Of a DNA stretch of 64,000 bases, positions 36,820-58,340 are shown piece after piece; positions within the stretch are counted from its first letter, which is position 1; every line of letters starts with the position of its first letter. The stretch is taken from NCBI GenBank assembly GCA_965248695.1, contig CBDFKD010000002.1:1696001-1760000 (forward strand), read 5' to 3'. Made by a program: the position numbers and the translations under genes. This DNA is from Acidobacteriota bacterium. GTDB lineage: Bacteria > Acidobacteriota > UBA890 > WLXD01. The notes beneath the pieces are model-generated. The model was not told where the DNA came from and did no database searches. It saw nothing but the letters and a program-made list of their open reading frames with translations.

Positions 36820-36823
36820 GTTC

Positions 36824-38578: not shown

Positions 38579-38668
38579 GTTCAGACCTCGCAGAAGCCGT
38601 GTTGATCACTATTGATCGTTATTAGCTAATATGTCAGAGATTAGCATCTTAAAACGTTCTGAAAAGCC

Positions 38669-40875: not shown

Positions 40876-40890
40876 CCTTCTCCTTCGCCG

Positions 40891-41862
40891 TCAGGCCACA
40901 CGCGGCTGTTCGTCGAGGTCATCAGAATCGGGCTCCTCTGTAAGTCGTAGGAATACCTGCTCGAGGCTGAGCTCGGTACGGGTCATGCCGAGAAGCTCCC
41001 AGCCGCCGTTGACGATCGCCGCGGCAAGTCGGGATCGGAGGTCTCTGTCGGCGGAGGTGGCAACCTCGCAGCGCCAGCAACCCGGCTCGGTATCGTCGAG
41101 CAGCACGACGCTGTCGGCGCCGACGACTGCTTGCAGCGAGCGCCGCATCGCATCCACGTCGCCACGCGCGTGCAGCACGATCCGTTGACCGCCGCTGAAC
41201 CGCCGGGTCAGCGCCTCGACCGTATCGGTAGCAACGACGGTGCCCCGGTGCACCACTACAAGCCGCTCGCAGGACGCGGCGATCTCGTTGAGAATGTGGC
41301 TCGACAGAATCACGGTGTGGTCGCCGGCGAGCTGACGAATGAGTTGCCGCACCTCGATGATCTGCCGCGGGTCGAGCCCCGAGGTCGGTTCGTCGAGAAC
41401 CAGTAGATCCGGCGAGTGAAGGATCGCCTGCGCCAATCCGACACGCTGCCGGTAGCCCTTGGAAAGCTGCTCGATCGGTTGCTCGGCTCGGTCCTCGAGC
41501 CAGCATAGGGTCAGGGCGCGATCGACTGCGTCGGCGCGCTTCGACCTGCGCATGCCCTTGAGCTCCGCCACGAACATGAGGTACGCGCGGACCCGCATCT
41601 CCGGGTACAGCGGCGGCACCTCAGGTAAGTAGCCCACCCGCCGCTTCACCGCCAGTGGCTCGCGAGCTACATCGTGTCCGGCAACCCGGACCACGCCCGA
41701 CGTGGGGGGCATCGCGCCCATCAGGATCCGCATGGCGGTGGTCTTGCCGGCGCCGTTCGGTCCCAGCAATCCCACGACCTCGCCGGCGGCGACGTCGAAC
41801 GAGATTCCGTCCAGGGCGGCAACCGAACCGAAACGCTTGGTGAGATTCTCGATGTGGATCAT
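40891..41862 (-). CDS. GldA-like ABC transporter ATPase
   Basis: GPNGAGKTT, LSKGYRQRVGLAQA, LDEPTSGLDP, SSHIL, SLEQVFL. Confidence 0.93.
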   Translation of the reverse strand: MIHIENLTKRFGSVAALDGISFDVAAGEVVGLLGPNGAGKTTAMRILMGAMPPTSGVVRVAGHDVAREPLAVKRRVGYLPEVPPLYPEMRVRAYLMFVAELKGMRRSKRADAVDRALTLCWLEDRAEQPIEQLSKGYRQRVGLAQAILHSPDLLVLDEPTSGLDPRQIIEVRQLIRQLAGDHTVILSSHILNEIAASCERLVVVHRGTVVATDTVEALTRRFSGGQRIVLHARGDVDAMRRSLQAVVGADSVVLLDDTEPGCWRCEVATSADRDLRSRLAAAIVNGGWELLGMTRTELSLEQVFLRLTEEPDSDDLDEQPRVA

Positions 41863-42080
41863 CGAATGTCCGGGGTGGGGGTGGCAGGGACAAGAAAGGC
41901 CGCCGGGAGGTCATTCGCAGCCTCCCGACGGCCAAATCTTCGCCAATCCGGACAGGTCGATGCTAGCTCATAATCACATAAGCCACTTTTTCATTCCCAT
42001 GACAGTACTTGTCCGTCCATGGCCCTCCTTGTCATATCCTGAGAGGTCAAGAACGGTCAAAACTAGCTTGAAGTGACTAA

Positions 42081-42578
42081 TCACCGAATTCCACCGACCC
42101 CGGCCAACACGGCAGTTTGATCGTCGCCACCCGTATGCCAGCCCCAGGGCTGATCAAAGCGAGTCTCGATCTGCTCGTTGGGCCCGGCAGAGTAGCAGAC
42201 TACAGCCGAGCTGAAGAACGGCTGGTGGCGCCTCCAATACGCATGCGTGTTGTACAGCGTAGCCGGCGGCAAGTGCAGAGCGAAGACGTTTGCCATATAG
42301 CGATTGCCCCACGGATCGGCGTTGATCCTGTCGGCGATGTAGGGGCCGCGCCAGTGGAACATGTCCATGGGATCCACCGTGCCGGGATAGCGACCCAGAT
42401 TGAGCGGACCGTTGCCGTAGCCGCTATAGCCGCCAGCCGCGAGGGCGTCGGAAGTGGTCACTACACCGTTGTGGATGAGTTGGTCGGCAAACCCATCGAC
42501 CAGAAACCTCAGGCCGACCTGGTAGTGCGCGTCGGTGGTGGCGCTAAACGAAGCCCCGCGCTCTAGCTGCCACTGGGT
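42081..42578 (-). pseudogene. 5'-truncated GspG-like pilin paralog
   Basis: Frame is open up to the IS end. Has WRGPY, DPWGNRYMAN, SAVVCYSAGPN and GGDD but no prepilin N-terminus on either side of the IS. Confidence 0.85.
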
Positions 42579-42612
42579 TGACCTGACCCCGCGGTTAGTA
42601 CCATGTCTTATC

Positions 42613-43500
42613 TCAGTAACTCGGTGCTGACAAGAGGTTGTTGAGGCCGGCGAAGCGGAGCGCAGCCGGCTTCAACAACGTCGCTTCGGGTGCGGGCGGC
42701 CGATAGCTCAGCGAGCTGTGCGGTCGCATGCGGTTGTAGTGCTGACGCCATCTCTCGATCAGAACCTTTGCCTCCTTGAGCGTGTAGAAGATCTCTCCAT
42801 CCAGCAGCTCGTCGCGTAGCTTGCCGTTGAAGCTCTCCACGTAACCGTTCTCCCACGGCGAGCCCGGCTCGATGAACAGCGTCCCCACGCCCAACCGGCC
42901 CAGCCAGTCGCGAACCGCCTCGGCGGTGAACTCTGGTCCGTTATCCGACCGGATGTGCTCAGGTATGCCCCGGTGTACGAACAACCTCCCGAGCTGCTCC
43001 AGCACGTCCTCAGAGTTGAGCTTCCGTGCTACATGGATCGCCAGGCTTTCTCGTGTGTACTCATCGACGATCGTCAGCAGCCTCATAGCCCGACCGTCGT
43101 GCGTCCGGTGGTGCAGGAAGTCATACGCCCAGACATGATCCCGGTGCTGTGGGCGCAGCCGGATGCAGGAGCCATCGCTCAGCCACAGCCGTGCTCGTTT
43201 GGGCTGTTTTCTCGGTACTTTCAGCCCTTCGCGCCGCCAGATACGCTGCACTCGTTTGTGGTTCACGGACCAGCCCTCCATGCGCAGCAACGCTGTCACC
43301 CTCCGATATCCGTAGCGCCCGTACTGTCGGGCTAAATCCACGATCCGCTCCGTCAAAATCTGCTCCTGTTGCGGCTCTCTTGGCACGTACCGGTGTGTCG
43401 TGCGTGGTTGTTTCAGTACCCGACACGCCCGCCTCTCCGAGACGCCCAGCCGCCCCCGTACATGTGCCACCGCCTCTCGCCGCCGAGCTGGGCTCAGAAG
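42613..43500 (-). CDS. IS3 transposase OrfB (DDE), probably expressed by -1 frameshift
   Basis: YGYRRV, WAYDF, VDEYTRE, RSDNGPEF, PWENGYVESFNG, RPHSSL. GGGAAAC slippery site at the orfA end. Start approximate. Confidence 0.9.
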   Translation of the reverse strand, partial: LLSPARRREAVAHVRGRLGVSERRACRVLKQPRTTHRYVPREPQQEQILTERIVDLARQYGRYGYRRVTALLRMEGWSVNHKRVQRIWRREGLKVPRKQPKRARLWLSDGSCIRLRPQHRDHVWAYDFLHHRTHDGRAMRLLTIVDEYTRESLAIHVARKLNSEDVLEQLGRLFVHRGIPEHIRSDNGPEFTAEAVRDWLGRLGVGTLFIEPGSPWENGYVESFNGKLRDELLDGEIFYTLKEAKVLIERWRQHYNRMRPHSSLSYRPPAPEATLLKPAALRFAGLNNLLSAPSY

Positions 43501-43772
43501 TTTCCCTCCGCCACTTCCTTCAGGATCGACAGGTCGAGTTCCTTTTCCGCCACCAGCCTCTTGAGCCGGGCATTCTCCTTCTCCAGTTGCTTGAGCTTTC
43601 TGGCCTGGTTGAGCTTCAGTCCGCCGTACTCTCGCCGCCACCGGTAGTAGGTGTGCTCGGTGATTGCTAGCTTGCGGCAGGCATCCTTGACCGTCGCCCC
43701 TCGAGCCAGCTCCACCTCAGCCTCCCGGAGCTTGCGTACGATCTGCTCGGCGCTGTGCCTCTTACTCGGCAT
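43494..43772 (-). CDS. IS3 transposase OrfA
   Basis: EQIVRKLREAE, TYYRWRREYGG, LEKENARLKRLVA. Confidence 0.92.
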   Translation of the reverse strand: MPSKRHSAEQIVRKLREAEVELARGATVKDACRKLAITEHTYYRWRREYGGLKLNQARKLKQLEKENARLKRLVAEKELDLSILKEVAEGNF

Positions 43773-43908
43773 TCTGACCTCCCGTTCTTGACCCAGATCG
43801 TGAGATTACATCCGGATCCGTTTTCGGGGGTCAGGTCAGTCCGCCGATGGCGCGTGCACCTAGACAAACTAGCTGCGCGGGCGAGAGGTTCGGCGCCGGC
43901 ACATTGAG

Positions 43909-43948
43909 AAAAAGGCCGCCCGCCGAGCTTGGAGCTCGACGGGCGGCC
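43909..43948 (-). terminator. Intrinsic terminator after pilin 44024-44800
   Basis: Minus strand GGCCGCCCGTCGAGCT-CCA-AGCTCGGCGGGCGGCC followed by TTTTT. Confidence 0.85.
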
Positions 43949-44023
43949 ATAGCGTCACATTGCGCCTCCTCTTCACCGATCGGTATGGGGCCCGGCCGGA
44001 TCCGAGGTGGTGCGACGCTCCAG

Positions 44024-44800
44024 CTACATGGGCCCACCGGCGCTGAGCACGACGGCGATGTCGTCGCCGCCGGTCATCCATCCCCATAACCCGTCCTCGT
44101 CATCGTCGGCGAGGGTCTGGTTGAAGAACGTATCGATGCCGCTGTCGGGGCCGGCCGAGTAGCAGACCACTGCTGAGGTGAAGATGCGCTGGCCGTCCTC
44201 CCAGAGCGCGTTGCCCCTGGGGTTGGCGTACAGCGCGAAGCTGTTGACAGCGTAGCGGTTCATCCAGGGATCGGTGCTGATCTTGTCGAAGTAGGGTCCA
44301 CGCCAGCCGAAGAACATGCTCCCCAACTCGGGATGGTTGATGGGATCGGGGTACTGCGTGCCCAAGTCGTCGCCGCCCGGATCGTTCTGCTGCAGGTGGT
44401 TCTCGAGCCGATCGACGTAGAAGCGCTGTTCGCCGATTCCACCGGTGTCGTAGTGCTCGGCGAAGTAGTTACCTACTTGCCGACGCCAGTGGCCGCCGAA
44501 CACAATGCCGTCGTCGAGCGATCCGCGCTTGGGCGTCGAGCCGGGGCCGACCAGCAGGCCGATCGGCTGCTCGAGGTTGCCCGGGTTGAGGTAGAGCGCG
44601 TTCCTTTGCACCTCGTCGAGCATCTTCTTGACGCTGGAGCACAGAACGGTGAGGTCTTCCTTGAACTTCACGAAGCGCGCCAGGCGATTGTAGTTGCCCA
44701 ACTGCGGCAGCATGATGGTCGACAGAATAACGAGAACGAGGAGGATGATCGTCACCTCTACCAAGGTGAAGCCATCCTGCCTACGAAGCGAAAGCTTCAT
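44024..44800 (-). CDS. Large GspG-like prepilin paralog (distal group)
   Basis: DG|FTLVEV, GLLVGPG, NHLQQN, GWRGPY, DPW, CYSAGPD, GGDD. GGGAG RBS. Confidence 0.88.
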   Translation of the reverse strand: MKLSLRRQDGFTLVEVTIILLVLVILSTIMLPQLGNYNRLARFVKFKEDLTVLCSSVKKMLDEVQRNALYLNPGNLEQPIGLLVGPGSTPKRGSLDDGIVFGGHWRRQVGNYFAEHYDTGGIGEQRFYVDRLENHLQQNDPGGDDLGTQYPDPINHPELGSMFFGWRGPYFDKISTDPWMNRYAVNSFALYANPRGNALWEDGQRIFTSAVVCYSAGPDSGIDTFFNQTLADDDEDGLWGWMTGGDDIAVVLSAGGPM

Positions 44801-45484
44801 GGTGGGTCTCCCTGTTTTGCTGCAGCGCTGCTCCCGCTCCGGGGCAGCGCCGGTGCTGTCGCGAGGCCCCCTGCGGGTGCCTCGCCCGGCCTCCCGACGA
44901 CGCGTGCCGTCTTCGCCTCCGATTCCCAGCTCGGAGCGGGTTGAGCCCGCCACAGCTAGCCGTCGGTGCTCAGCCGACGACCGGAGACCGGTCCCCATCG
45001 CGACCGCGTCCGCATCGGGTTTCGATGCGCTCGCCGCCGTGTGCGATGAGATGCGATCACTTTAGAGTCTGTGCTACGTAGGCCAAACCAGATCGGGCCC
45101 CACTTGGCCGCGGTTGCCGCTGCCTTCGGCCGCCCAAGGTCGTGGCATCGGCAAGGCAGTCCAAAAGGCGGCCGAGATTTGCAGGGCGAGGCGATGCGGT
45201 CCCGGGGCTTGCGGCGCCGGACCGTCGCGGGCGGCGACGGCCATCGCCGGCCGACACTCGACCGAGCCCCGGCACGCCCGGCAAGCAATCGCGATCCGCG
45301 GCGGGCGGCTGGGGAGCTCGCCCGCACGAGCGTGCCTACAGCGCCGCGGGCCGAACACACGCGGGCGCGATCGGCACCAGGGTTGAAACAAACAAGGAAG
45401 CCCGGCCATCGTGCGATGACCGGGCTTTCTCGGGGAGGCAGCGACTGCCGGGCACGGCAGTCGCCAACGACACGTGCTGGATCT

Positions 45485-46246
45485 TTAGAAGGGGCCCCCG
45501 GCGCTTAGAATCACCGCCAGGTCATCATCAGCGGTGCGCCAGCCGTTGAAGCCATCGCCATCGCCGTCGTTCATCGACTGGTTGAAGCTCGTATCGACGG
45601 CACCGTCGGGACCGGCGGACAGGCAGACCACCGCGGAGGTGAACAGACCCCGTCCCTCCTCGGCGTCCTTGTCGCGGTGCAGCGCGAATACGTTGGAGGC
45701 GTAGCGGTTGCCCCAGGCGTCGGTGGTGAACTCGTCGAAGTACGGTCCGCGCCAGCCGAAGAACGCCCCGGCTGCCCAGCGCTGCGGATTGTCGATCGGG
45801 TTCTTGTAGCGGAACGACGGATCCTGGCTGCCCTCTTCGAGCGGGTTGTTCTGCTGCAGATGGTTCTCGAAGCGGTCGACCTTGAAGTACACCTGTGTGC
45901 CGAGCACGTCGGTCTCCTCGCCGAAAGTCGCGCCGGGGTTCTCCAGCCAGTTGCTGTTGCCGCCAGAGGAGCCGCCCACCGGAGAGCGTCCCGGACCGAC
46001 GAGCAAGCCGATAGGCTGCTCGCGCCACCTGGGTTCCCCATAGAAGCCGCCCAACATCACCTCGTCGAGCATCTTCTTCATGCCCGAGCAGATCGCGCCG
46101 AGGTCTTCCTTGACCTTGACGAAGCGAGCCAGCCGATTGAAGTTGCCGAGCTGCGGCAACATGATCGTCGACAAGATCACCAGCACCAGCAAGATGATGG
46201 TGACCTCGATGAGAGTAAAGCCGCGATTGTCGTCGCGAAGCTGCAT
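45485..46246 (-). CDS. Large GspG-like prepilin paralog (distal group)
   Basis: RG|FTLIEV and the same motif set. GGGAGG RBS. Confidence 0.9.
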   Translation of the reverse strand: MQLRDDNRGFTLIEVTIILLVLVILSTIMLPQLGNFNRLARFVKVKEDLGAICSGMKKMLDEVMLGGFYGEPRWREQPIGLLVGPGRSPVGGSSGGNSNWLENPGATFGEETDVLGTQVYFKVDRFENHLQQNNPLEEGSQDPSFRYKNPIDNPQRWAAGAFFGWRGPYFDEFTTDAWGNRYASNVFALHRDKDAEEGRGLFTSAVVCLSAGPDGAVDTSFNQSMNDGDGDGFNGWRTADDDLAVILSAGGPF

Positions 46247-46674
46247 GGTTCTGGGCCTCCCTGTAGTGCCCGGCGTCCGGGGAGACGTCGCCCGAGCACG
46301 TGTCGTAGGGGAATCGTAGGGTTACGGGGCAGTCACCCCCAACCTGCCCGTCTCACTCGTGGCCGCGGTTGTCACCCCCGAACTGCGTTTCCGTGTGCAC
46401 CCGTGGCAGCCGGAGCCAGGCACAGTCGGGGCCGTGCGACCGGGCTCCAGAACTAGCTGCAGAGGCCAGGCACGTCCAATCGAGGCAAACTGCGGCGCGG
46501 ATCCGGGCCGCGAGAAGCTCACCGGAACGCCAACGCCGAACAAGCGTGCGCCGGCGGCGGCCAAGACAAGCGAAGGGCGAGGCACCTGAGTACCTCGCCC
46601 TCGTTCAGGAAGGTTCGATGCTAACGGTCGCGCGGTCTGGCAATCGAACCGTCGGCTTGTCCGTTGACCACTGA

Positions 46675-47442
46675 CTACATCGGCCCGCCACCGCTTAGCA
46701 GCGCCGTGAGATCGTCGTCGCCGGTGGTCCAGCCATAGGGCTGGTTGAAGTCTGTGTCGACGTTGCCATCCGGTCCGGCACTGAAGCAGACCACTGCGGA
46801 GCTGAACCGATCTAGCGGTCCCACCTCGGGTGGGCTGTAGAGCGCGAACACGTTCACCGCGTAGCGGTTGCCCCAGGGATCGGGCGAGATGTCGTCGTTC
46901 ATGTAGGGGCCGCGCCAGGCGAAGAGGCTGTTGAACCCCTGTTCCATGTCGTTGGGAGTACGCCAGCGGTTGCCGGCATCGCCCATCGGCGTGTTGGAGA
47001 TCAGATGGTTGCCGAGCATGTCGACCTGGAACGAGATCTCCTCGCCGGTGGCGGTCTCGACGTCGAACATGTCGAAGAAGTCGAGTCGCCACATGGAGCG
47101 ACCATCAGAATCCCCTTCCGGGCCGCTCGGCTTGTCACCCTCGCCGATCAACAGACCGGTGGCCCAGGTGCGCACCGGCGGATGATCGTAGCCGGCCTCC
47201 TCGAAGATGGCGCCCTCGCCGACGTCGTCGAGCATCGCCTTGATGACCGAGCAGATCGCACCGAGGTCTTCTTTGACTCGGACGAATCGGGCGAGCCGGT
47301 TATAGCCACCGATCTGCGGCAGCATGATGGTGCTGAGATTCACCAAGACAAGCAGGATGACGGTGACCTCGACCAGGGTGAACCCGCGCTCGGAAACAAC
47401 GTCCGGCGCCGTACGCGACTGCGCGACCTTGGGTGGAACCAT
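46675..47442 (-). CDS. Large GspG-like prepilin paralog (distal group)
   Basis: RG|FTLVEV, AWRGPY, DPWGNRYAVN, CFSAGPDG, GDDD. Start uncertain. Confidence 0.88.
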   Translation of the reverse strand: MVPPKVAQSRTAPDVVSERGFTLVEVTVILLVLVNLSTIMLPQIGGYNRLARFVRVKEDLGAICSVIKAMLDDVGEGAIFEEAGYDHPPVRTWATGLLIGEGDKPSGPEGDSDGRSMWRLDFFDMFDVETATGEEISFQVDMLGNHLISNTPMGDAGNRWRTPNDMEQGFNSLFAWRGPYMNDDISPDPWGNRYAVNVFALYSPPEVGPLDRFSSAVVCFSAGPDGNVDTDFNQPYGWTTGDDDLTALLSGGGPM

Positions 47443-47837
47443 TCGATTGGGCCTCGTTGGGGCCACGTCGTTTGCCCCGGGCTCGATCCGGAGCGACCTG
47501 CCGGGCGACCGCGATCTGCACCGGCAGTGCCGAGACCTGGCGACGTGCGCCACGTCGTTCTGCGTAGCGTCCAATGTAGATGCACCAGGAGGCGCTAACC
47601 AAACCCAATCGCATCCAGCGGCCGCTGCTGGCCGGCCGGTCGGCGGCCGGAATCGACTAGGCTGGCAACGGCAGTCAGCCCGCGCCAGAGCGCGTAGCCT
47701 GGAGGCTCAACGCGTGCCTGCCGGCCACGGCTTGGCGGTAGTTTGCCCGCACCGCCCCTGGGTCGCCATCGCGGCCACCGGCGGTCATGAACGCGCACCG
47801 ACGGCCGCAGGCGAGCGGCCGAGAAGGATGCCGGCGG

Positions 47838-48053
47838 TCAGCCGGAGTCGCGCTCGCTGACGAGCTTGAGACCGGGGTCGCGGCCATGGTTCTTCTGCCA
47901 ATGCTCGATGTCCACATCGCGGAAACGCCAATGGCCACCGACGTTGACATATGGCAGTCGACCCTCGACAACCTCGCGCACCACAGCGTCGCGCGTCATC
48001 TCGAGACGAAGTGCCAGGGTCGCGACCGTCTCCACGCGGATGCTGCTTCTCAC
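47838..48053 (-). CDS. Small excisionase/BldC-like HTH protein (5th in array)
   Basis: TVATLAxRLxMTxxxVxRE..GRLPYVNVGGHWRFRDVDIEHW. Confidence 0.78.
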   Translation of the reverse strand: MRSSIRVETVATLALRLEMTRDAVVREVVEGRLPYVNVGGHWRFRDVDIEHWQKNHGRDPGLKLVSERDSG

Positions 48054-48166
48054 GTGAGCTTCCCCAACTTGATCCAGGCTTGGTGGGCAACTGGGGGGAG
48101 CGTACGCGCGCTGGTTCACGGCCTCAACGACCGGTGGCCGCCGTTGGCCGCTCCTGTCCGGTCTTT

Positions 48167-48427
48167 TCAGCTGATGCCGCTTTCGACATCAGTCGACCGC
48201 TCGGCGTCAGGATGACGCTCGAGTCGCCCTCCGCGCAGCAACTGCAACCTGGGCAAGCCGCCGGCGCGTGCCATCCAGAGCTCGACGTCGCGCTCGCGAA
48301 ATCGCCAGTTCCCGGCGATGCTGACGTAGGGCAGGCGAGAGCGGATGACCTCGCGCTCGATGGTACGGCGCGGAAGGCCGAAACGCTCTGCCAGACTTTC
48401 GACGGTCTCTAGGCGCTGCCGCTTCAT
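48167..48427 (-). CDS. Small excisionase/BldC-like HTH protein (4th)
   Basis: TVESLAERFGLPRRTIERE..SRLPYVSIAGNWRFRERDVELW. Confidence 0.8.
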   Translation of the reverse strand: MKRQRLETVESLAERFGLPRRTIEREVIRSRLPYVSIAGNWRFRERDVELWMARAGGLPRLQLLRGGRLERHPDAERSTDVESGIS

Positions 48428-48647
48428 TACTTGCCAACCGGGGGTCAGGGACTTGCCTTGTCTGAGGGCAGAGCATGCCGGCAGCCCTGCTCACTCGCAA
48501 TAGAAGGCGGCCGCCGCTGACCATGCCCGTCCACAGACCTCGGGGGAACGTGGCGGAAGGGGTGGCGAGCGGTGGGACCCTGCACAGACTAGGGCCGCCA
48601 GGGACCCCGCGCCGGGTGGGTCAGTGCGGCGGAATGGCGCGATAGGC

Positions 48648-48911
48648 CTAGAGCGACGATTGAGCCTGTCGGCTCCGGCCGCCCTGGATCAGGCGGAATC
48701 GCGATCGCTGCAATCGGGCGCGCAGGTACGACTCGACGTCGACTTTCCGATAGCGTCGCCGTCCACCGACCTTGACGAACGGCAGCCGACCGCGGGCCAC
48801 TTCTCGCTGCACGGTTCTCGCACTGACCTGCAGATACTCTGCCAGCGAGAAGGTGGTGAACAGGTTCGTGTCCGACATCTGTGTCAATCCGACGTTGCGG
48901 CTCATTCCCAC
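48648..48911 (-). CDS. Small excisionase/BldC-like HTH protein (3rd)
   Basis: TTFSLAEYLQVSARTVQRE..GRLPFVKVGGRRRYRKVDVESYL. Start may be 48878. Confidence 0.82.
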   Translation of the reverse strand: MGMSRNVGLTQMSDTNLFTTFSLAEYLQVSARTVQREVARGRLPFVKVGGRRRYRKVDVESYLRARLQRSRFRLIQGGRSRQAQSSL

Positions 48912-49083
48912 AGTCTCTGCGCTTCGAGATCGACCCTACCGCCCCCTGCAAGAAGGCGCAATCGATGTCGTTGGGCGGTGGCCGCCGTTGTCCGACTACG
49001 GCGGGCGTTCTGATCAGGGAATCGACAGCCTTGGCCACGGACGCGAACCTGATCGGTCTCACAGCGCCCTGAAAGCGTCGCCG

Positions 49084-49764
49084 TCATTGGATCCGGGCGC
49101 TGATATCGAGGGGACTGGCAGCGGCGTTGCCGAGCAACTGCGCGTCGGCGGCCGGGTACAGCGTGTCGAAGACACCATCGGGTCCGGCCGACAAAGCCCA
49201 TACGGCACGTTTCTGCTGCGTGCCTCCGGCCTCGTACGCCCCAGGGTTCACCGACAGATGCTCGACATTGATGACGTAACGGTTACCCCACGGATCGCTC
49301 TGCATGTGCGCGTTGAGGTAGGGACCGTTCCAGCCTGAACCGCTCAGCGCCGTCTTCAGCGGGTAGCCGACATTGCCCGATGAGGGTCGGTTGTTCACCA
49401 GCTGGTTGGAGATGAAGTCGATGACGCTCGGGTCGGTAGTCAGCCAGGGCTCGGCGCCAGGACGCGCCTCGCCGACCGCGCCCGGCGAGACCAACAGCGC
49501 AATGTCGAGCTCGCGCTGGCCGTCGGCGAACTGGGCATGGAAGCCATTGTCGCGGAAGAACTCGAACACCGAATCCGCCAGGATCCGAACGTCGTTCTGC
49601 GCCCGCGCGAGGCGCGACTGGTTCAGGAAGTTGAACACCGAAGGCGCCAGGATCAGACCCAAGATCGCGATCACTGCCAGGATGATCGTGATCTCCAGGA
49701 GCGTGAACCCAGGCGCACTGCGAGCTCGCTCGCGGCCGCGACCGGGAGCCAGAGCATGGTTCAT
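49084..49764 (-). CDS. GspG-like prepilin paralog (proximal operon)
   Basis: PG|FTLLEI, GWNGPY, DPWGNRYVIN, LSAGPDG. Confidence 0.88.
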   Translation of the reverse strand: MNHALAPGRGRERARSAPGFTLLEITIILAVIAILGLILAPSVFNFLNQSRLARAQNDVRILADSVFEFFRDNGFHAQFADGQRELDIALLVSPGAVGEARPGAEPWLTTDPSVIDFISNQLVNNRPSSGNVGYPLKTALSGSGWNGPYLNAHMQSDPWGNRYVINVEHLSVNPGAYEAGGTQQKRAVWALSAGPDGVFDTLYPAADAQLLGNAAASPLDISARIQ

Positions 49765-50567
49765 CGGCTGCCCCCCGACACAACACGAATCAGGTCGTCG
49801 TCGCCCGGCACCACGCCGTCGACCTCGTACGGAGTGTCGACCTCCTCGTCCGGACCGGCGGACATCACGAAGATGTCGTAGCGGTAGCCGGCGTTGTCCT
49901 CGGTGGCGCTGTCGGCGATCGGGTCGAGGTACAGGACGTTGACCGCATAGCGATTTCCCCACGGATCGGAGCGCACCGGCGCCGAGACGTACGGACCGCG
50001 CCAGGCAAAGCGCGCGCCGAAACCCTGCTGACTCGCAAAAGCCGCGGTGCGCGACGGCACGTCGGCGATCAGGTCCTCCGGAGTCCGGTAGCCGGCGGTC
50101 GGTTCGTTGCCCGGCGTGTTCTGCACCAGATGGTTCGCAAGCGTATCGACCACATGCCCATCGTACGGCCGTCGCCAGAGCCATGCGTCCCCGCCTTCAC
50201 CCTCGTCCGGCGTGTCGCCGTCGCTGATGAGCATTCCGACGGTGAAGTAGGGATCCGGGTTCGAGGGCTCGTAGTCCTCGCCCGAGGAAGTATCGCGGTT
50301 CCCCTTGCCGAGACAGCGGAACACGCCCTCGCCAGTGTCGCGCATGAAGACCAGGATGGCTTCGTGGATCGTGCCGATGTCCTGCCGCGCACGCGCTAGA
50401 CGCGCGTCGCGCAGGTAGTTGCCGATCCCCGGGAGCAGGATGAGGCTCAGCACGGTCAGCACCAGGAGGATGATCGTCACCTCCACCAGCGTGAAGCCGC
50501 GCTCTCCCTCCCGTCGCGTCCTACCGTTGCGGGTCGTCGTCTTGTGTTGAGGTTGAGTGCCGGTCAT
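49761..50567 (-). CDS. GspG-like prepilin paralog (proximal operon)
   Basis: RG|FTLVEV, NHLVQNTP, AWRGPY, DPWGNRYAVN, SAGPD, GDDD. Confidence 0.88.
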   Translation of the reverse strand: MTGTQPQHKTTTRNGRTRREGERGFTLVEVTIILLVLTVLSLILLPGIGNYLRDARLARARQDIGTIHEAILVFMRDTGEGVFRCLGKGNRDTSSGEDYEPSNPDPYFTVGMLISDGDTPDEGEGGDAWLWRRPYDGHVVDTLANHLVQNTPGNEPTAGYRTPEDLIADVPSRTAAFASQQGFGARFAWRGPYVSAPVRSDPWGNRYAVNVLYLDPIADSATEDNAGYRYDIFVMSAGPDEEVDTPYEVDGVVPGDDDLIRVVSGGSR

Positions 50568-50577
50568 GGAGATCTCT

Positions 50578-51429
50578 TCAGCGCAGGGAGCCATAAGAAA
50601 CCGGAAACGCGATGTCGTCGTCACCAAGCACAAAGCCGCCGACGGAGGCAAACGGCGTATCGACTTCCTCGTCGGGTCCGGCCGAAAGCACGATCACGGG
50701 CCGGATGAAACCGACCGAGTCACCACCCTGGGGCACGGTGAGCCAGGCGACGTTGGCCATGTAGCGGTTGCCCCACGGATCGGGTCGCAACCCGTCGAGG
50801 TAGAAGCCGCGCCAGGCGAACTCGGAATTGAAGCCCTGACCACCGCTACCGTCGAACTGCAATCCGCCGGGAACGCCGGAACTGTGATCCCCCGACACCA
50901 TGTCGGCCGGCGTCCGATACCGCTTCCAGTCCGGGCCGGTACCACCACCGCTGTCTCCGGGGTAGTTCTGAATCAGATGATTGGCAAACGTGTCGACGAT
51001 GCCGCCGGTAAGCCACACATCCGGGAAATCGGTGCCGGCATCGGCCACCGTCGAACCCAGCGGCGCCCGCCAGTCGTAGAACTCGCTGTGACCGTCCGGC
51101 GTGTCGCCGTCGCCGATCAGCAGGCCGACGGGCGGCGCAGAGCCGTCCTCGGAATAGCGCTCCGGCGATCGCCAACTCGAGCTCCCCATAGGCTTGGAAT
51201 GGAACGAGCTCTCGCCGGTGTCCTTGAGCATATGCATCATGGCAGCGCCGATGGCGGCAACATCTTCGCGGACGCGAGCAAAGCGCGCGTCGCGCAGGAA
51301 CACGCCGATTTGCGGCAGCAGAATGGCCGACAGGATCGCCAGTGCCATCACGATGATCGACACCTCGACCAGCGTAAAACCGCGATCATCGACGTCTTTC
51401 CAGCGCCGTCCCTGGCCCAGTTTCGTCAT
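50578..51429 (-). CDS. GspG-like prepilin paralog (proximal operon)
   Basis: RG|FTLVEV, GLLIGDGDTP, NHLIQN, AWRGFY, DPWGNRYMAN, SAGPD, GDDD. Confidence 0.88.
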   Translation of the reverse strand: MTKLGQGRRWKDVDDRGFTLVEVSIIVMALAILSAILLPQIGVFLRDARFARVREDVAAIGAAMMHMLKDTGESSFHSKPMGSSSWRSPERYSEDGSAPPVGLLIGDGDTPDGHSEFYDWRAPLGSTVADAGTDFPDVWLTGGIVDTFANHLIQNYPGDSGGGTGPDWKRYRTPADMVSGDHSSGVPGGLQFDGSGGQGFNSEFAWRGFYLDGLRPDPWGNRYMANVAWLTVPQGGDSVGFIRPVIVLSAGPDEEVDTPFASVGGFVLGDDDIAFPVSYGSLR

Positions 51430-51473
51430 CGTTGTCTCCCTGCGTTTGCGGGCGTTGCCAGCTCGACACATCG

Positions 51474-52337
51474 TCATCGTCCCGGCACGCTGTCGGGCCC
51501 GGTCGAGAACAACACTGCGATGTCGTCGTCCCCGGGAACGAACCCGTCTATTTCAAAGCTCGAATCGATCTCCTGGTCCGGACCGGCCGACAAGACCACC
51601 ACGTCGACCCCCTCTGTTTGACTCAGGAAGTACACGTTGGCGGCATAGCGGTTGCCCCAGGGGTCGCCTTGACCGAGGTTGAGATAGGCGCCGCCCCAGG
51701 CGTGCAGCTGCGACAATGCACCGGCCACTGGATCGCTACAGTCAAGGAGGTTCGCGAAGGCGCGGCGGGGGTCGTTTCCTGGGGTGTTGGAAATCAGGTA
51801 GTACTCGAAGAAGTCCACCCAGGTGCCGTCGACCGGCTCGGCCCAGCGCTCGCCGCCCTCGGGTCCCATTGCCGGAATGTCACCGGCGGTGACCAGAATC
51901 TCGACGGCGTCGCCGTAGCACAGGTCGGGGTTGCCGCAACCGACACCGAGCGCCTGTGCGTTGACGCGACCGCCTTCCAGAGTCCCGTTGCCACCTCCAG
52001 GCGGCAGCAGAGGAGGCGTCACGACCGGCGCAACAACGACACTGCTGGCCGCGCTTCGACTGCGACCGCTGGTGCGCCGCGTGGTCGCAGAGCTCGAGAG
52101 CGACGAGTACGCCTCGTTCTGGGGCACGAAGACGCAGCCGATATCTTCAATAAACTGCTGCAGCGCCCTGCCGATGGCGATCATTTCGGCGCGCGCCGTC
52201 GTGAGTCGCGCGTTGGCTACGGCGCCGGTGAGCACCGGAGCGATGGCAGCCGACAAGACAACCACGACCATGAGGATGATCGATACCTCAACGAGCGTGA
52301 AGCCACGACTCTCTCGGAGACTACGCATGCTTCTCAT
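51474..52337 (-). CDS. GspG-like prepilin paralog with Ser/Pro/Gly-rich insert
   Basis: RG|FTLVEV, AWGGAY, DPWGNRYAAN, SAGPD, GDDD. Confidence 0.87.
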   Translation of the reverse strand: MRSMRSLRESRGFTLVEVSIILMVVVVLSAAIAPVLTGAVANARLTTARAEMIAIGRALQQFIEDIGCVFVPQNEAYSSLSSSATTRRTSGRSRSAASSVVVAPVVTPPLLPPGGGNGTLEGGRVNAQALGVGCGNPDLCYGDAVEILVTAGDIPAMGPEGGERWAEPVDGTWVDFFEYYLISNTPGNDPRRAFANLLDCSDPVAGALSQLHAWGGAYLNLGQGDPWGNRYAANVYFLSQTEGVDVVVLSAGPDQEIDSSFEIDGFVPGDDDIAVLFSTGPDSVPGR

Positions 52338-53023
52338 TGCAATCGAAAACCGATGTCATCTCCGTACAGACGAGCGTTGTCGCGCGCCTGATAGAAGGGA
52401 GTTTCGATGATTCCGTTCGGACCGGCTGACAGCACCCATGCGGCGCCGAGCCGCGAGCCGTCAACCTCCTGTACGACGTTTCTCACATCAAGCCAGAAGA
52501 CGTTGACGATATAGGCGTGTCCCCAACCATCCCCACCCGCCGCTTGCGGCAAGTACGGTCCGGCCCAGCCCCGATTGTCGATCGGGCTTCGAGCGCGATA
52601 GCCCTTGCCGTTGAACGTCAGGTGCTCCGCCAGGAGTCCGAGATCCGATTCGATCCAGAATCCGGTCGAAGTCGTGCTTCCCGGCAGCGGAGCAGCGCTG
52701 ATGAGCGCGCCGACCTCCTGATCGCCGGGTCTGCCGTCGAACGTATCGTTGGTACGCGGGAAGTAGCCGGTATCGGCATAGAACTCCACGATCGCGCGCC
52801 CAATACGGTCGACTTCCTCACGCGTGCGCACGGCATGCGATTGCTCCAGCAGGTCGCCGGCAGCAGTAGCAACCAGACCCACTAGCAAGCCGAGCACGGC
52901 AAGGATCACCGTAATCTCGACCATCGTCATGCCATCGTTACGAGGCAAGAAGCTTTCCGGTTGCGGTCTCAGCCACTGCCGCCAACTTCGACGGCTGGCA
53001 CGCTGGTGCGAAGCGCAGGGCAT
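52334..53023 (-). CDS. GspG-like prepilin paralog (first in array)
   Basis: DG|MTMVEI, GWAGPY, DGWGHAY, LSAGPNG, GDD. Start uncertain. Confidence 0.85.
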   Translation of the reverse strand: MPCASHQRASRRSWRQWLRPQPESFLPRNDGMTMVEITVILAVLGLLVGLVATAAGDLLEQSHAVRTREEVDRIGRAIVEFYADTGYFPRTNDTFDGRPGDQEVGALISAAPLPGSTTSTGFWIESDLGLLAEHLTFNGKGYRARSPIDNRGWAGPYLPQAAGGDGWGHAYIVNVFWLDVRNVVQEVDGSRLGAAWVLSAGPNGIIETPFYQARDNARLYGDDIGFRLQ

Positions 53024-53024
53024 C

Positions 53025-53243
53025 TCAGCCGATCGCCGCAATACGCTCGTCGAACAGCGGGCTGGAGTTGTAGCGATCCTGCGACTGACTCTGCAGGTAG
53101 CTCTCCACGTCCTCCGGTCGATATCGGATGAGATCGCGAATACGGATGTAGGGCAGCCGGCCTGCCTCGCGCTCTCGCCGAACGGTATGCGGCGAAACCT
53201 GCAGGTAGTCAGCCAGGGACTCTGTCGTATGAAGACCCAGCAT
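53025..53243 (-). CDS. Small excisionase/BldC-like HTH protein (2nd)
   Basis: TTESLADYLQVSPHTVRRE..GRLPYIRIRDLIRYRPEDVESYL. GGAGG RBS. Confidence 0.85.
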   Translation of the reverse strand: MLGLHTTESLADYLQVSPHTVRREREAGRLPYIRIRDLIRYRPEDVESYLQSQSQDRYNSSPLFDERIAAIG

Positions 53244-53316
53244 TGTTTGCCTCCGTGTTCCCCGCCGATGCGGGGGTTGGCTCAACCTAGATGAAGCGAT
53301 AGATCCGCTTTGGGAC

Positions 53317-53535
53317 CTAGCGGTCACCCCAGTTGGCCTGCGAGGCAAATGCGTCGGTGTCCAGCGACATGCTTGCGTTGCGCTCGAGATAGGCGCGCAC
53401 ATCGCTCTCGCGATAGCGAATCTGTCCGCGAACGCGTACGAACGGCAGGCGGCCCTCTTTGCGCTCGCGGCGGATCGTCCGCGGCGAGACCTGGAGCAGC
53501 TCTGCGAGCGTCTCGGTGGTGTACAGCTTCTGCAC
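53317..53535 (-). CDS. Small excisionase/BldC-like HTH protein (1st)
   Basis: TTETLAELLQVSPRTIRRE..GRLPFVRVRGQIRYRESDVRAYL. GGGGAG RBS. Confidence 0.86.
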   Translation of the reverse strand: MQKLYTTETLAELLQVSPRTIRRERKEGRLPFVRVRGQIRYRESDVRAYLERNASMSLDTDAFASQANWGDR

Positions 53536-53610
53536 GGTTGCGTACTCCCCTGTTGTTGGTAATCACCGGGGCTTGGTAGGCGCCGAGCCGAGCTCGACAC
53601 CTGGGGAGAG

Positions 53611-53627
53611 AGCAACCGCCGTGCCAA
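53611..53627 (-). promoter_or_regulatory. Sigma-54 promoter driving the HTH/pilin array
   Basis: Minus strand TTGGCACGGCGGTTGCT, a full match to TGGCACG-N4-TTGC(A/T), 75 bp upstream of the first HTH. Confidence 0.88.
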
Positions 53628-53862
53628 ACGCGGCCGCCTGTCGCTTGGGACGTCACACGATGGCCAGGTCGATCTACGCAAGTTACTGTTTCCATTGGTC
53701 TTACAGAATCTGCGTCAAATCACGAAAGCACCCGGCCGGCCAGCTTCGGCCACCACGGTACTGGTGGCGTCGCCCCCGTCCGGCCGTGCAGCCTGCCGAT
53801 CCAGACTGATCATTTTCCCGTAAACTATTGATCAGACTAGGGTTACGGACCAATCTACAAAA

Positions 53863-53882
53863 CGTGTAGCAACTCCTACACG
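53863..53882. promoter_or_regulatory. Candidate upstream activator sequence
   Basis: Inverted repeat CGTGTAG-CAACTC-CTACACG containing TGT-N10-ACA, ~240 bp upstream of the sigma-54 promoter. Confidence 0.55.
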
Positions 53883-54039
53883 GTTTCGGGGGTTCCCGGT
53901 TGCCAAGCGGGGTCGAGAGGAGGCAGGCGGGTACAGTCGCGGGCGGCGGCGGACGGACGCGGCCAGGACTTGCGCACGCTCGTCAGCGGCGCGCGGAGGC
54001 GGCCGCGAGACCCTCGGGTGCGACGGAGGAGGCAACGCC

Positions 54040-55434
54040 TCAGCCTTTCAGCCGCTCCACGTCGATCCCGTGCTTCTTCACCTTGTGCCACATCGATCGC
54101 TCGGAGATCCCGAGTCGCCGTGCCGCGGTTGCCTGTACGCCGCTGGCACTCCGCAAGGCATCGGTCAATATCTGTCGCTCGATGCGGTACATGGTGATCG
54201 GCAGGCTGTCGTCGGTTCCGGTCCGCGCGGCGCGCTCGGCAACCAGCGAGCCACGCACGACCTCCGACGGCAAGTCCTGACGCCTCAGCTCGTCGGTCTC
54301 GCTCCAGATCACGGCACGCTCGATGGCGTGACGCAGCTGCCGCACGTTCCCTGGCCAGCCATAGCCGACGACGGCGTCGAGCGCCGCCGGAGAGATACGT
54401 TGCAGGCGTTTGTCGTGTGAGTCGTTGGCCTCGCGGATGAAGTGCTCCGTCAGCAGTGGGATGTCCGGCCCGCGCTCGCGCAACGGCGGTAGCGTCACCG
54501 TGACCACGTTGAGGCGGAAGTAGAGATCCTCGCGGAAGCGTCCTTCACGGACCTCGAGGGCGAGATTGCGGTTGGTGGCGGCCACCACGCGGACGTCGAC
54601 GCGCACCGGCGCAACGCCGCCAACACGCTCGAACTCACGTTCCTGCAGCACGCGAAGGATCTTTGCCTGAGTTTCCAGGCTCATGTCACCGATCTCATCG
54701 AGCAAGATCGTGCCGCCGTCGGCAAGCTCGAACTTACCGATCTTCCGTTGGTGCGCGCCAGTGAACGACCCGCGCTCATGTCCGAAGAGCTCGCTTTCGA
54801 GCAGCGTCTGCGGGATCGCGACGCAGTTCAGCTTCACGAACTGGCCCGCGGCTCGTTTGCTCTTGAAGTGAATGGCCTCGGCGACGAGCTCCTTTCCCGT
54901 ACCACTCTCACCGAGCACCAGCACGGTCGTGTCCGAACGCACCACCTTGCCCAACGTTTCGAAGACGTGCCCCATGGCCTGTGACTTGCCGAGCATGTTG
55001 CCGAAACCGACGTGGCCTCCGCCTTGGCTACGAATCCGCGTGCCTTCGCGCGCCAGCTTGCGGCGCTCCAGTGCGCGTGCCATAACCACGCGCAGCTCGT
55101 CGATCTGGATCGGTTTGGTGAAGAAATCGTACGCGCCGCGATCCACCGCAAGCGCCGCCGTTCGTCGGCTTCCGTACGCGGTCATCATCACCACGAGAAC
55201 GTCCGGCTGCAGTCGCCGCATCTCCTCCAAGATGTCGAGCCCCTCCGCGTCGGGCAGTCGCTGGTCGAGCAGAACGAAGTCGTAACCGACTTCTGGGTCG
55301 GCCAGTCGCTCGAGCCCCTCGGCGGCGGTTTCGGCTTCATCGATGGTCAAGCCTTCGCTCGCTAGCGCCGCGAGGAGCGTGTAGCGCACCTCGGGGTCGT
55401 CGTCGACGATGAGCAGACGCTTCATATCCGCCAC
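54040..55434 (-). CDS. NtrC/PilR-like sigma-54 response regulator
   Basis: REC domain (IVDDD, LLD, MTAYG, KP), [31 protein letters not shown], Fis-type HTH. Confidence 0.94.
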
Positions 55435-56937: not shown

Positions 56938-57171
56938 TCGTTGCTCCGAGACAACGGAAACACGGGTACAGGACTGACAGGGCTGATTCTAGCGAGGCCC
57001 GAGTTACCGTCGAAGCGAAAACGCTCTTAACCGTCGCTGTAGCAATGTTCAGGACGTGTTTGACCATTTTTTCACTCTAAAACACGCAGTACGGCATTTT
57101 GGGGCTGACTTGGCGGGTTCGCGCTTATTACCATCGCGGCATCCAATGCCTTCCCGACCGGTCGAGAGACG

Positions 57172-58005: not shown

Positions 58006-58340
58006 TAAGCCGGCGCGCGTGCGCGCGGTCGGGGACCGGCACCGCCCAGTTTGCGGACGCGCCGTGCTGGCGCGCGACTGACTGTCCCTGCGAAGCCGTG
58101 AAGGCAGCAGCTGCATTCGAGACGCCAAGACAGCAGCTGCCCCGGGGATTCCAAGGCAGCAGCGCGCAGAATTGCGCAGCGTACCGCCTTGACAGTCTGT
58201 CCCGCAGCGCGTAGAGTGATCATCGTTGACTACGCTGAATCAGGATTCGCTAGTTCTGGCGAGACTTGGCCGGCGCTGACCGCAACATCGCTCCTGATCG
58301 ATTGGACGGAGCGCCTTGCGGGGATTCGAGGAGGGACACG

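Follow-up and report, generated by a model that had tools for sequence, protein, structure and literature searches.

Loci for type IV filaments are usually described with a single major subunit gene that is controlled directly by PilR and sigma-54 or by some other single factor. In the tcp type IV pilus operon of Vibrio cholerae, pilin expression is controlled by ToxT, an AraC-family factor encoded inside the operon itself. Multiple pilA homologues are reported for some myxobacteria (passages of PMC6060248), and two kinds of small protein are described as acting on direct repeats: BldC of Streptomyces, which binds such repeats and bends the DNA (passages of PMC5859096), and the excisionases or recombination directionality factors (RDFs), which oligomerise on them and in some cases regulate transcription (passages of PMC11963761). 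Here we analyze an array of nine large GspG-like prepilin genes (P1 to P9, the last truncated) interleaved with five genes for small winged helix-turn-helix proteins (HTH1 to HTH5, or H1 to H5) in a 64,000-nt stretch of an Acidobacteriota genome (assembly GCA_965248695.1, contig CBDFKD010000002.1, positions 1,696,001 to 1,760,000), which we call the window and number from its first letter.

The locus is a lineage-specific variant of the type IV filament loci that resemble the type II secretion system (T2SS) and the mannose-sensitive hemagglutinin (MSH) pilus. The lineage departs from the usual plan in the number of subunit genes of the GspG fold that it has retained (8 to 14 or more), in having five small Xis/BldC-like proteins fixed among the pilins through the history of a family of five genera, and in a signature of promoter rewiring, with per-gene sigma-54-like promoters lost and a shared box and sigma-70-like promoters gained. 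New here are the conserved box, which stands beside a sigma-70-like promoter at every unit without a sigma-54 promoter, and the presence of sigma-54-like promoters before most pilin genes in relatives lacking the HTH genes. From the sequence, we favor, at a probability of about 0.5, a reading in which the BldC/Xis-like HTHs would carry the sigma-54 signal on to the distal promoters. If this is true, the locus is a compact case of an excisionase-type protein turned into a dedicated transcription factor, and a case of choosing filament subunits without DNA rearrangement. The locus supplies defined DNA sites and proteins of ~70 aa that are testable in vitro without culturing the organism.

Layout of the array

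From the two-component genes to the last pilin (42081-56937), all elements lie on the minus strand. In the direction of transcription, a kinase/activator pair is followed by the sigma-54 promoter, H1-H2, P1-P5, H3-H5, P6-P8, an IS3-family insertion sequence (IS), and the truncated P9. The first-pass annotation, made from the letters of the window, had described this order accurately, every element lying on the minus strand and at or near where it had been placed. The starts of the prepilin genes were picked by eye from the list of open reading frames (ORFs).

55435-56937, minus: sensor histidine kinase with HAMP, PAS, HisKA, and HATPase domains (Pfam; syntenic in relatives)
54040-55434, minus: sigma-54-dependent response regulator, the activator, with REC, AAA+ Sigma54_activat (237 bits), and HTH_8 domains (Pfam)
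53611-53626, minus: sigma-54 -24/-12 promoter, exact consensus TGGCACGGCGGTTGCT (motif scan)
53317-53535, minus: HTH1, 72 aa, winged-helix HTH_17 (Pfam, 59.9 bits)
53025-53243, minus: HTH2, 72 aa, HTH_17 (Pfam, 44.4 bits; positional clade in the tree)
52334-53023, minus: P1 prepilin, 229 aa
51474-52337, minus: P2 prepilin, 287 aa
50578-51429, minus: P3 prepilin, 283 aa
49761-50567, minus: P4 prepilin, 268 aa
49084-49764, minus: P5 prepilin, 226 aa
48648-48878, minus: HTH3, 76 aa, HTH_17 (Pfam, 52.1 bits)
48167-48427, minus: HTH4, 86 aa, HTH_17 (Pfam, 31.9 bits)
47838-48053, minus: HTH5, ~71 aa, HTH_17 (Pfam, 30.5 bits)
46675-47442, minus: P6 prepilin, 255 aa
45485-46246, minus: P7 prepilin, 253 aa
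44024-44800, minus: P8 prepilin, 258 aa
42081-42578, minus: truncated ninth pilin, C-terminal 165 codons (profile positions 104-230)

The genes H2-P1-P2-P3-P4-P5 are coupled by ATGA overlaps or by gaps of at most ~45 nt (the gap size depending on the start chosen for P3). Spacing is 110-220 nt among H3-H5, and P6, P7, and P8 are each preceded by 395-684 nt of non-coding DNA, the intervals between them being 428-684 nt; a terminator-like hairpin followed by T residues lies 3' of each of these three genes. The layout is more than a chance arrangement because it is conserved across genomes. In the Pfam scan of 54 window ORFs (small ORFs outside the array were only partly scanned), there was no integrase or phage gene aside from the IS3 transposase, which bears out the earlier claim that the window has none. 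Neither full-text literature searches nor the passages of a survey of type IV filaments (PMC6668835) gave a published description of an HTH-pilin layout, in agreement with the view of the first-pass annotation that the layout was undescribed.

A single sigma-54 promoter heads the array

The element TGGCACGGCGGTTGCT at 53611-53626 is the sole zero-mismatch -24/-12 match in the window; matches with up to two mismatches were at chance level (31 against 23.0 +/- 5.4 expected, a count reached by 12 of 100 shuffles). At H1, the element matched at 11 of 11 positions and in the same place in all eight loci that include the region, and comparison across loci found no other conserved -24/-12 element within the array. 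A candidate second sigma-54 promoter before P6 (47517-47532, matching at 9 of 11 positions) was rejected, not being conserved in other loci. The genome has one copy of rpoN.

With its exact motif and its conservation in 8/8 loci, a sigma-54 promoter heading the array beside an NtrC-type two-component system, as proposed earlier, is supported. The description of the whole as a "sigma-54-driven array" holds for the head but probably not for the rest, as the promoter is likely to serve only H1-H2-P1..P5. The names PilS and PilR that had been given to the pair reflect position only: the kinase matched AtoS best among the NCBIfam models and the activator matched AtoC, NtrC, and the PEP-CTERM regulator PrsR, all below their cut-offs, and no match to a PilR- or PilS-specific model was obtained. 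PilS has a multi-pass architecture; the kinase here has HAMP and PAS domains instead. The activator is 74-93% identical in syntenic loci.

A direct-repeat box beside the distal promoters

Every unit without a sigma-54 promoter (H3, H4, H5, P6, P7, and P8) is preceded on its coding strand by a box in which GGNCA recurs two or three times as a direct repeat with a period of 10 bp; its consensus is cGG(A/C)CA(A/G)nnnCGGCCA. The box was discovered in a blastn-short comparison of the upstream regions of solitary pilin genes with the array, which gave only short matches, one of them pointing to the box. The copies at the array are the following.

53738-53752, plus: inverted box copy, ~112 nt upstream of the -24 element of the H1 promoter
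48979-48993, minus: box before HTH3, -35-like hexamer 48956-48961, -10-like hexamer 48933-48938
48508-48522, minus: box before HTH4, 8 nt from a TTGCGA hexamer, -10 candidate CATGCT
48135-48159, minus: three-unit box before HTH5, -35-like 48122-48127, -10-like 48099-48104
47619-47633, minus: box before P6, -35-like 47597-47602, -10-like 47573-47578
46360-46374, minus: variant box TGACA-N5-GGCCA before P7, -35-like 46337-46342, -10-like 46313-46318
45095-45119, minus: box before P8, -35-like 45081-45086, -10-like 45059-45064, the least certain promoter assignment

The box was kept across genera while the flanking sequence diverged. It was found before H3 and H4 in 10 of 10 loci each, before H5 and P6 in 9 of 10 each, before P8 in 2 of 3, and before P9 in 2 of 2 (counts leaving out L041, L042, L044-L046, and L048); in the tenth locus without an H5 box, the H4-H5 spacer has collapsed. 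In the window, the pattern GGNCA-N5-GGCC occurs 13 times (4.0 +/- 2.1 expected), a number that none of 100 shuffles attained. Within the six upstream regions (2045 nt), we counted 6 coding-strand hits against 0.26 expected, a figure that is inflated because the motif was found post hoc. The excess is also seen at the level of genomes: two-unit boxes outnumbered the control 1.7-fold in genomes of the window's family (168 vs. 99) and were on par with it in the sister family (107 vs. 111, 0.96-fold).

The distance from the end of the box to the -35-like hexamer is either 8-9 or 17-19 nt, a difference of one helical turn. The promoter pattern TTGnnn-N16-18-TAnnnT recurs at conserved positions upstream of H3 in 9/9 loci (N17/18), of H5 in 7/9, of P6 in 9/9, and of P7 in 4/5. 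Before H4, the strict pattern was found at a conserved position in 0/9 loci, a single match in L004 lying 324 nt upstream of the gene. A CCTACGA direct repeat before P7 and CGAC(A)CGTG/CACGTG motifs were rejected as shared elements, being confined to one or two promoters. The predicted leader of P6 contains a near-perfect palindrome, CGACGTG-N3-CACGTCG (47541-47557, minus), that is conserved within the genus. An inverted box-like match at 41888-41901 (plus), 26-39 nt upstream of the start of the ABC ATPase gene, may be a matter of chance.

Conservation and the contrast with HTH-less relatives

We compared the locus across 26 species genomes of its class (GTDB), including the family to which the window belongs (f1, five genera) and a sister family (f2). 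The HTH and pilin families were both present in all ten other f1 genomes and in none of the 15 f2 genomes; the number of HTH copies in the ten was exactly five in eight genomes, six in one, and two in one, a fragmented genome. Scanning genome contigs, we found 32 loci, all but four of them titled Acidobacteriota, Acidobacteria, or Vicinamibacterales. The order H1 H2, pilin block, H3 H4 H5, pilins recurred in eight other assemblies, in some cases over two contigs and with a few genes frameshifted, and the syntenic loci have the kinase/activator genes upstream and the ABC/GspE genes downstream.

Among 401 sampled Acidobacteriota genomes, strong HTH matches (E <=1e-21) were confined to f1, and seven non-f1 genomes had single matches near 1e-13 within ORFs of 203-281 aa. 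In the metagenome scan, the same layout was seen in 8/8 contigs with close HTHs, and a pilin was nearby in 0/26 contigs with distant HTH_17 proteins. The HTH and pilin trees (the former leaving out L005, a duplicate of L013) group the sequences by position and not by genome, and the paralogues thus predate the radiation of the family. The linkage of HTHs and pilins is therefore conserved in related genomes (10/10 f1 genomes and 8/8 metagenome contigs); the first-pass annotation had named the lack of such conservation as a refutation.

More distant loci, of the Vicinamibacterales type, contain 3-4 pilins, the kinase/activator pair, and the machine genes but no HTH. In four of these (L023, L025, L026, and L027), a separate sigma-54-like promoter stands before 7 of the 12 pilin genes; of the remaining five, one is at a contig end, one is coupled, and three are of the P1/P5 type. 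Upstream of these pilin genes, the box was matched once, in L027, where it follows the sigma-54-like promoter and precedes the first pilin gene; none of the other pilins has a box upstream. In the HTH-bearing family, by comparison, a single sigma-54 promoter remains in the array.

The HTH proteins

All five HTHs exceeded the gathering cut-off of the Pfam family HTH_17 (PF12728; 27 bits) with scores of 30.5-59.9 bits, and their nearest solved chains were the BldC-DNA entries 6amk and 6ama (E 2e-5), as the first reading of the proteins as HTH_17 members near BldC had it. The base-reading Arg30 of BldC and Arg48 of its wing (passages of PMC5859096) correspond to R23 and R40 of H1, which do not vary among the 37 aligned HTHs. 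As the HTH_17 cut-off is passed, the BldC-DNA entries are nearest, and the reading arginines are invariant, the HTHs look like DNA binders and are most likely BldC/Xis-like winged-helix proteins of ~70 aa. By analogy to BldC, the invariant CA of the box (TG on the opposite strand) would fit a YpG contact. For the first half of the label "excisionase/BldC-like" the outcome is split: H1 (44.7 bits), H3 (45.4), and H5 (29.3) reach the cut-off of the excisionase family TIGR01764 (28.8 bits), H2 (28.2) and H4 (28.5) are just under it, and no linked recombinase was found among the window ORFs scanned.

Short ORFs in DNA of 65% GC are prone to be spurious, and one could think of the HTH ORFs as non-functional hitch-hikers or annotation artefacts. 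This is hardly credible and is contradicted by their conservation: the ratio of nonsynonymous to synonymous substitution rates (dN/dS) was 0.05-0.27 over 25 pairs, indicating purifying selection equal to or tighter than that on the pilins, all five scores exceed the Pfam cut-off, and positional orthologues are found in 10/10 family genomes. HTH1 is the most conserved paralogue, with an amino-acid identity of 86-96% and a dN/dS of 0.05-0.08 in comparisons with five relatives.

After the winged helix, each paralogue has a C-terminal tail that is conserved and distinct from those of the others; an R(F/L)x(L/V)(I/L)xGGR-like motif is found in the tails of H3 and H4 and, in looser form, in H5. Such tails might suggest that the HTHs act through protein contacts, as chaperones of pilins or the machine or as adaptors of RNA polymerase, and the MerR-like relatives TnrA and GlnR do bind a partner through their C-terminal tails (passages of PMC5859096). 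However, the DNA-reading arginines are invariant, and the HTHs have no signal peptide while the pilins are membrane/periplasmic proteins, and we consider this explanation very unlikely.

A sixth, H1-like HTH gene is found elsewhere in the genome (G000:C2:2289503-2289709; locus L039 7980-8429, minus), with 85% nucleotide identity over the coding region and without the promoter. It is surrounded by IS elements and a ParB-like/methyltransferase ORF, and a gene for a 594-aa large serine recombinase is 3.6 kb away; this setting hints at a mobile-element origin of the HTHs. The genus mate G018 (L040) has an extra copy of H1 together with ~400 nt of the H1 upstream region. Of the 22 HTH_17 matches in the genome, 7 fall in the window. 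One of these is a generic HTH_17 gene of 93 aa (58266-58547, plus) between an M48 peptidase gene and a 277-aa ORF upstream of the kinase, with a counterpart in the corresponding position of L016, L041, L043, and L046, and another match (58 bits; 23058-23198, minus) adjoins a hemerythrin-domain gene.

A proposed relay from sigma-54 to the distal promoters

Taken together, the single sigma-54 promoter, the shared box, the excess of boxes in the window's family, and the contrast with the HTH-less loci favor a winged-helix relay that has taken over the distal promoters. In this model, the NtrC-type kinase/activator pair would fire the single sigma-54 promoter, which would transcribe HTH1, HTH2, and the five translationally coupled GspG-fold pilins P1-P5. 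HTH3, HTH4, HTH5, and each of the distal pilin genes (P6, P7, P8, and onward) would form separate units, each with a predicted sigma-70-like promoter behind a GGNCA box of two to three units and 10-bp period. Binding of these boxes would most likely fall to the five HTHs, which would in this way pass the sigma-54 signal on to the distal promoters and possibly diversify it; in this lineage, the relay would stand in for the sigma-54-like promoters that individual pilin genes have in HTH-less relatives. The cascade from PilSR through sigma-54 to the HTHs that the first-pass annotation had suggested is strengthened by the shared box at six downstream units and by the contrast with the per-gene sigma-54-like promoters of HTH-less loci; its PilSR part is a matter of position.

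Several observations weigh against the relay. Regarding the proteins, H1-H3 score 21-31 bits against the 77-bit cut-off of the BldC family (NF033787) and are not members, and H4 and H5 gave no match to it at E <=0.01. The head-to-tail oligomer of BldC has a core of Phe21, Trp31, and Leu43, with Trp31 as the key residue (passages of PMC5859096); in the 37 HTHs, positions 21 and 43 remain hydrophobic and Trp31 is replaced by an invariant Glu. Regarding the promoters, P7 carries only the variant box, kept in 3/3 same-genus loci, with the strict box pattern in 0/5; the sigma-70-like hexamers are weak matches, and a generic sigma-70 scan recovered none of them; and the exact 9-mers common to different upstream regions in at least three genomes came to one trivial k-mer only. 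The activator, the pilins, and the HTHs have the same phyletic pattern within the class, and the pattern cannot tell them apart. A reduced first pilin block in some contigs, described below, makes it less likely that a priming set must have five members. Finally, a box in reverse orientation lies upstream of H1, before the sigma-54 promoter, in 7/9 loci, and multi-unit boxes are found at ~14 loci of the genome (against 7 control hits), most of them before non-pilin genes: the box at 1344875 precedes an ORF that by eye looks YjbQ-like, and the box at 1809214 is followed 38 nt downstream by a perfect sigma-54 motif, TGGCAC-N5-TTGCT, and then by a 487-aa ORF that, judged from its N-terminal sequence, looks like a sugar transferase. 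Multi-unit GGNCA arrays, some of four or five units, lie at G000:C2:1344875-1344919, 1430490-1430524, 4437156-4437200, and 1809214-1809238.

These genomic boxes bear on a different explanation, according to which it is the NtrC-type activator, or some unrelated regulator of direct repeats (e.g., of the OmpR type), that binds the boxes, and the HTHs are small regulators or architectural proteins that are merely co-expressed, with other and possibly genome-wide targets. The inverted copy ahead of the H1 promoter has the position and the independence of orientation that are typical of an enhancer, the box at 1809214 has its place before a perfect -24/-12 motif, and the mostly non-pilin multi-unit boxes would suit a regulator with a wider role. 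At the distal units, however, the boxes stand at a fixed helical phase beside -35-like hexamers and have no -24/-12 element downstream, and we know of no sigma-54 activator that activates promoters of the sigma-70 type. Genome-wide, a box was found within 250 nt upstream of 5 of 126 sigma-54-like sites (4.0%), equal to the background of 4.1%, and the HTH-less relatives, whose activator is 50% identical, lack the box at all pilin promoters but one. BldC is itself a global regulator (passages of PMC5859096), which would agree with HTHs having targets elsewhere. We regard this explanation as unlikely, though by no means far-fetched.

The relay could also be extended to a hierarchical programme resembling the classes of flagellar genes. 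The two-component signal would activate the sigma-54 operon and so supply H1/H2 together with the priming pilins. H1/H2 would next switch on the box promoters of H3-H5 and of the major pilins, and the choice among the alternative major subunits would lie with H3-H5, by way of their divergent recognition helices and their paralogue-specific tails. The per-gene sigma-54 promoters would have been displaced by a domesticated excisionase of a mobile element. We hold this extension to be doubtful; if true, it would make filament composition programmable by transcription and not by recombination.

Prepilins

All eight intact pilins have a class III signal, with a cleavage site of the type G|FTLVE (G|MTMVE in P1) and a hydrophobic N-terminal helix. 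Six of the eight matched N_methyl at 17-24 bits (cut-off 21.2 bits), P1 and P6 giving no match, and the nine pilins have in common the motifs G|FTLVE leader, NHL-x-N, WRGPY, DPWGNRY, and SAGPD. Against the GspG family TIGR01710 (cut-off 88.85), they score 30-44 bits, below the cut-off and covering the N-terminal helix only; PF08334 (cut-off 21) matched six of the nine at 17.6-22.1 bits, with P1, P4, and P5 alone just reaching the cut-off.

For P7, we predicted a structure with AlphaFold2 from 81 family sequences (predicted local distance difference test score 90.1, predicted template modelling score 0.84). In a structural search, the model matched EpsG (4lw9; Z 7.1, root-mean-square deviation 2.5 A over 102 residues) and PulG (5wda; Z 6.4, 126 residues), with all others at Z 4.7 or below. 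MshA (9lab) reached Z 2.4, its sequence match being confined to the N-terminal helix. Foldseek gave no match to the model at E <=0.001, though its top entry was a GspG. As EpsG and PulG clearly outrank all other structures, the description of the pilins as large and GspG-like holds at the level of the fold; the scores fall short of membership in the curated GspG equivalog family. The protein search found 187 relatives of the pilins at E <=1e-5 among the candidates, with the automated names "pseudopilin PulG" or "hypothetical."

In the tree (FastTree), P1-P5 each form their own clade across genomes. The number of distal genes past P7 varies, and a distal orthologue has opposite orientations in different genomes. 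P1-P5 are ancient, positionally fixed paralogues and probably form a low-abundance or priming set, and the distal pilins are probably the major subunits because they are variable in number, are monocistronic, and have their own terminators. The earlier idea of interchangeable subunits is too simple, P1-P5 being ancient and fixed in position and only the distal genes varying in number. In L022/L041 and L042/L043, the first pilin block (HTH2 to HTH3) has only 2-3 genes, apparently the result of paralogues having been deleted or fused. The array of L022 leads straight into the PilM/GspL-like gene, and this junction may be a deletion or a misassembly.

Two full-length members of the large-pilin family stand alone outside the array (G000:C2:1044893-1045702 and 3342812-3343594). 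At the first, a three-unit box lies 9 nt from a TTGGTA hexamer, and the second has no box nearby. A further three-unit box (G000:C2:3750511, minus) precedes by ~210 nt an ORF of 288 aa whose N-terminus resembles that of a prepilin and whose first 50 residues gave no match in the Pfam scan; this box is followed by a TGGCAC motif with a non-canonical spacing to GC.

Machine genes and other features

The remaining features of the locus are the following.

53863-53882, minus: terminator-like hairpin after the activator gene (terminator scan)
53260-53276, minus: conserved GC hairpin between HTH1 and HTH2 (alignment of 7 loci, read by eye)
46573-46602, minus: terminator-like hairpin after P6
45398-45427, minus: terminator-like hairpin after P7
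43914-43948, minus: strong terminator-like hairpin after P8
42579-43840, minus: IS3-family insertion sequence, with orfA 43494-43772 (HTH_Tnp_1) and orfB 42613-43641 (rve) (Pfam)
26574-41862, minus: downstream partner genes (Pfam, NCBIfam, synteny)

The stem of the hairpin at 53260-53276 has changes on both sides across the seven loci, and the hairpin may act in partial termination or in mRNA stability. Rfam gave no match at E <=1 across 41500-57500.

The partner genes encode, in order, an ABC transporter trio, a GspE/MshE-type ATPase with MshEN, GspF, a 292-aa pseudopilin-like protein, a PilM/GspL-like protein, a GspM-like protein, a T2SSB-like protein, a secretin, an AAA_22+SPOR ATPase, a TPR protein, and an SLT transglycosylase. 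The top NCBIfam match of the secretin was MshL, at 200 bits against a cut-off of 250, and the MshM-like match of the AAA_22 ATPase was likewise below the cut-off. The sole match for GspC, on the T2SSB-like protein, scored 16.8 bits against a cut-off of 150, and the NCBIfam families of the minor pseudopilins GspH, I, J, and K gave no match except that of GspH to P5 at E 0.0094. The locus lacks a prepilin peptidase gene; the 5.9-Mb genome has a single Peptidase_A24 gene, which is ~120 kb away (C2:1871682) and looks like a part of a separate type IVa pilus (T4aP) cluster. The genome has seven T2SSE-family ATPases. GspC is mandatory in the final TXSScan model of the T2SS, which also has the distinct minor pseudopilins GspH, I, J, and K, and the MSH model calls for mshE, mshG, mshL, and mshM, without a prepilin peptidase in the locus (passages of PMC6668835). 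By the criteria in these passages of Denise et al. 2019 (PMC6668835), the machine is nearer in gene content to MSH than to the T2SS.

The IS3 element and rearrangement

The IS3 element has inverted repeats of 12 nt at its ends and 3-bp flanks that do not match, and the N-terminal part of the ninth pilin was not found beyond it. Contigs of four runs from one sample break at the ends of the element, where the depth rises. In the closest relative (L001 12796-15004), a distal pilin gene is split by a different IS3 element (orfB 13164-14159, orfA 14156-14506), and the distal arrays have thus been struck by IS elements independently in two genomes. In L005 (1700-9950), ~8 kb inserted between P6 and the next pilin gene encode a 316-aa reverse transcriptase (RVT_1), a radical-SAM/B12 protein, a SpoIIE phosphatase, and a MacB-like permease.

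Another reading takes the HTHs to be excisionase-type RDFs, or remnants of them, that steer a pilin-switch rearrangement with a recombinase encoded elsewhere. H1, H3, and H5 do reach the excisionase cut-off, the sixth H1-like copy sits in a region rich in mobile elements near the large serine recombinase gene, and the distal pilins vary in number and, in one case, in orientation. There is, however, no recombinase among the window ORFs scanned, and the repeat scan of the array found no recombination cassettes, long inverted repeats, or near-identical repeats, the paralogous pilin genes being 60-83% identical at the DNA level. The contigs of the four runs tile the array colinearly without reliable joints (all joint sides being at most 43 nt and mostly less than 30 nt, too short to bear on rearrangement or expression), and the five HTH paralogues are fixed in position over five genera. 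A role in rearrangement seems highly improbable.

Comparison with known systems

The pilins resemble GspG (EpsG/PulG) in their prepilin leader with Glu5, in the DPWGNxY core, and in the best structural matches to P7, and the pipelines of the Joint Genome Institute (JGI) label their relatives "PulG." They differ in ~110 extra inserted residues and in the presence of eight to nine paralogues per locus in place of one. The regulatory head resembles PilS-PilR-pilA, with a kinase and a sigma-54 activator beside pilin genes and a -24/-12 promoter in front. Compared with that system and with the HTH-less arrays, there is here one sigma-54 promoter, and six downstream units have sigma-70-like promoters and the box. 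ToxT is a single AraC protein of a type IVb pilus operon without sigma-54 input, whereas this locus has five winged-helix paralogues.

In the pilS-pilR-pilA-pilGHI region of Myxococcus xanthus, kinase, activator, and pilin genes are likewise followed by an ABC transporter trio, but that system is a T4aP with PilT and without HTH_17 genes, and the likeness of the ABC genes is one of position (passages of PMC6060248). The machine resembles MSH in the MshEN ATPase, the GspF/MshG platform, the secretin with MshL as its best match, the AAA_22 ATPase and TPR protein, which are like MshM and MshN, and the lack of a prepilin peptidase in the locus; it differs in the sub-cut-off scores of the MshL- and MshM-like proteins, in the Z of only 2.4 to MshA, and in gene order (passages of PMC6668835).

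Excisionases and RDFs (Xis; RdfS, passages of PMC11963761) are small like the HTHs and belong to the same Pfam/TIGRFAM superfamily, but the HTHs of this locus have no linked integrase, recombinase, or att-like repeats, and their chromosomal context has been kept across five genera. BldC is similar in its size of ~70 aa, in consisting of a MerR-like winged helix only, and in Arg30 and Arg48, which the HTHs have kept; its site is AT-rich with a 9-bp unit, whereas the box is GC-rich with a 10-bp period (passages of PMC5859096). The HTHs further differ from BldC in their scores below the family cut-off and the replacement of Trp31 by Glu, and in being five paralogues embedded in a pilin array.

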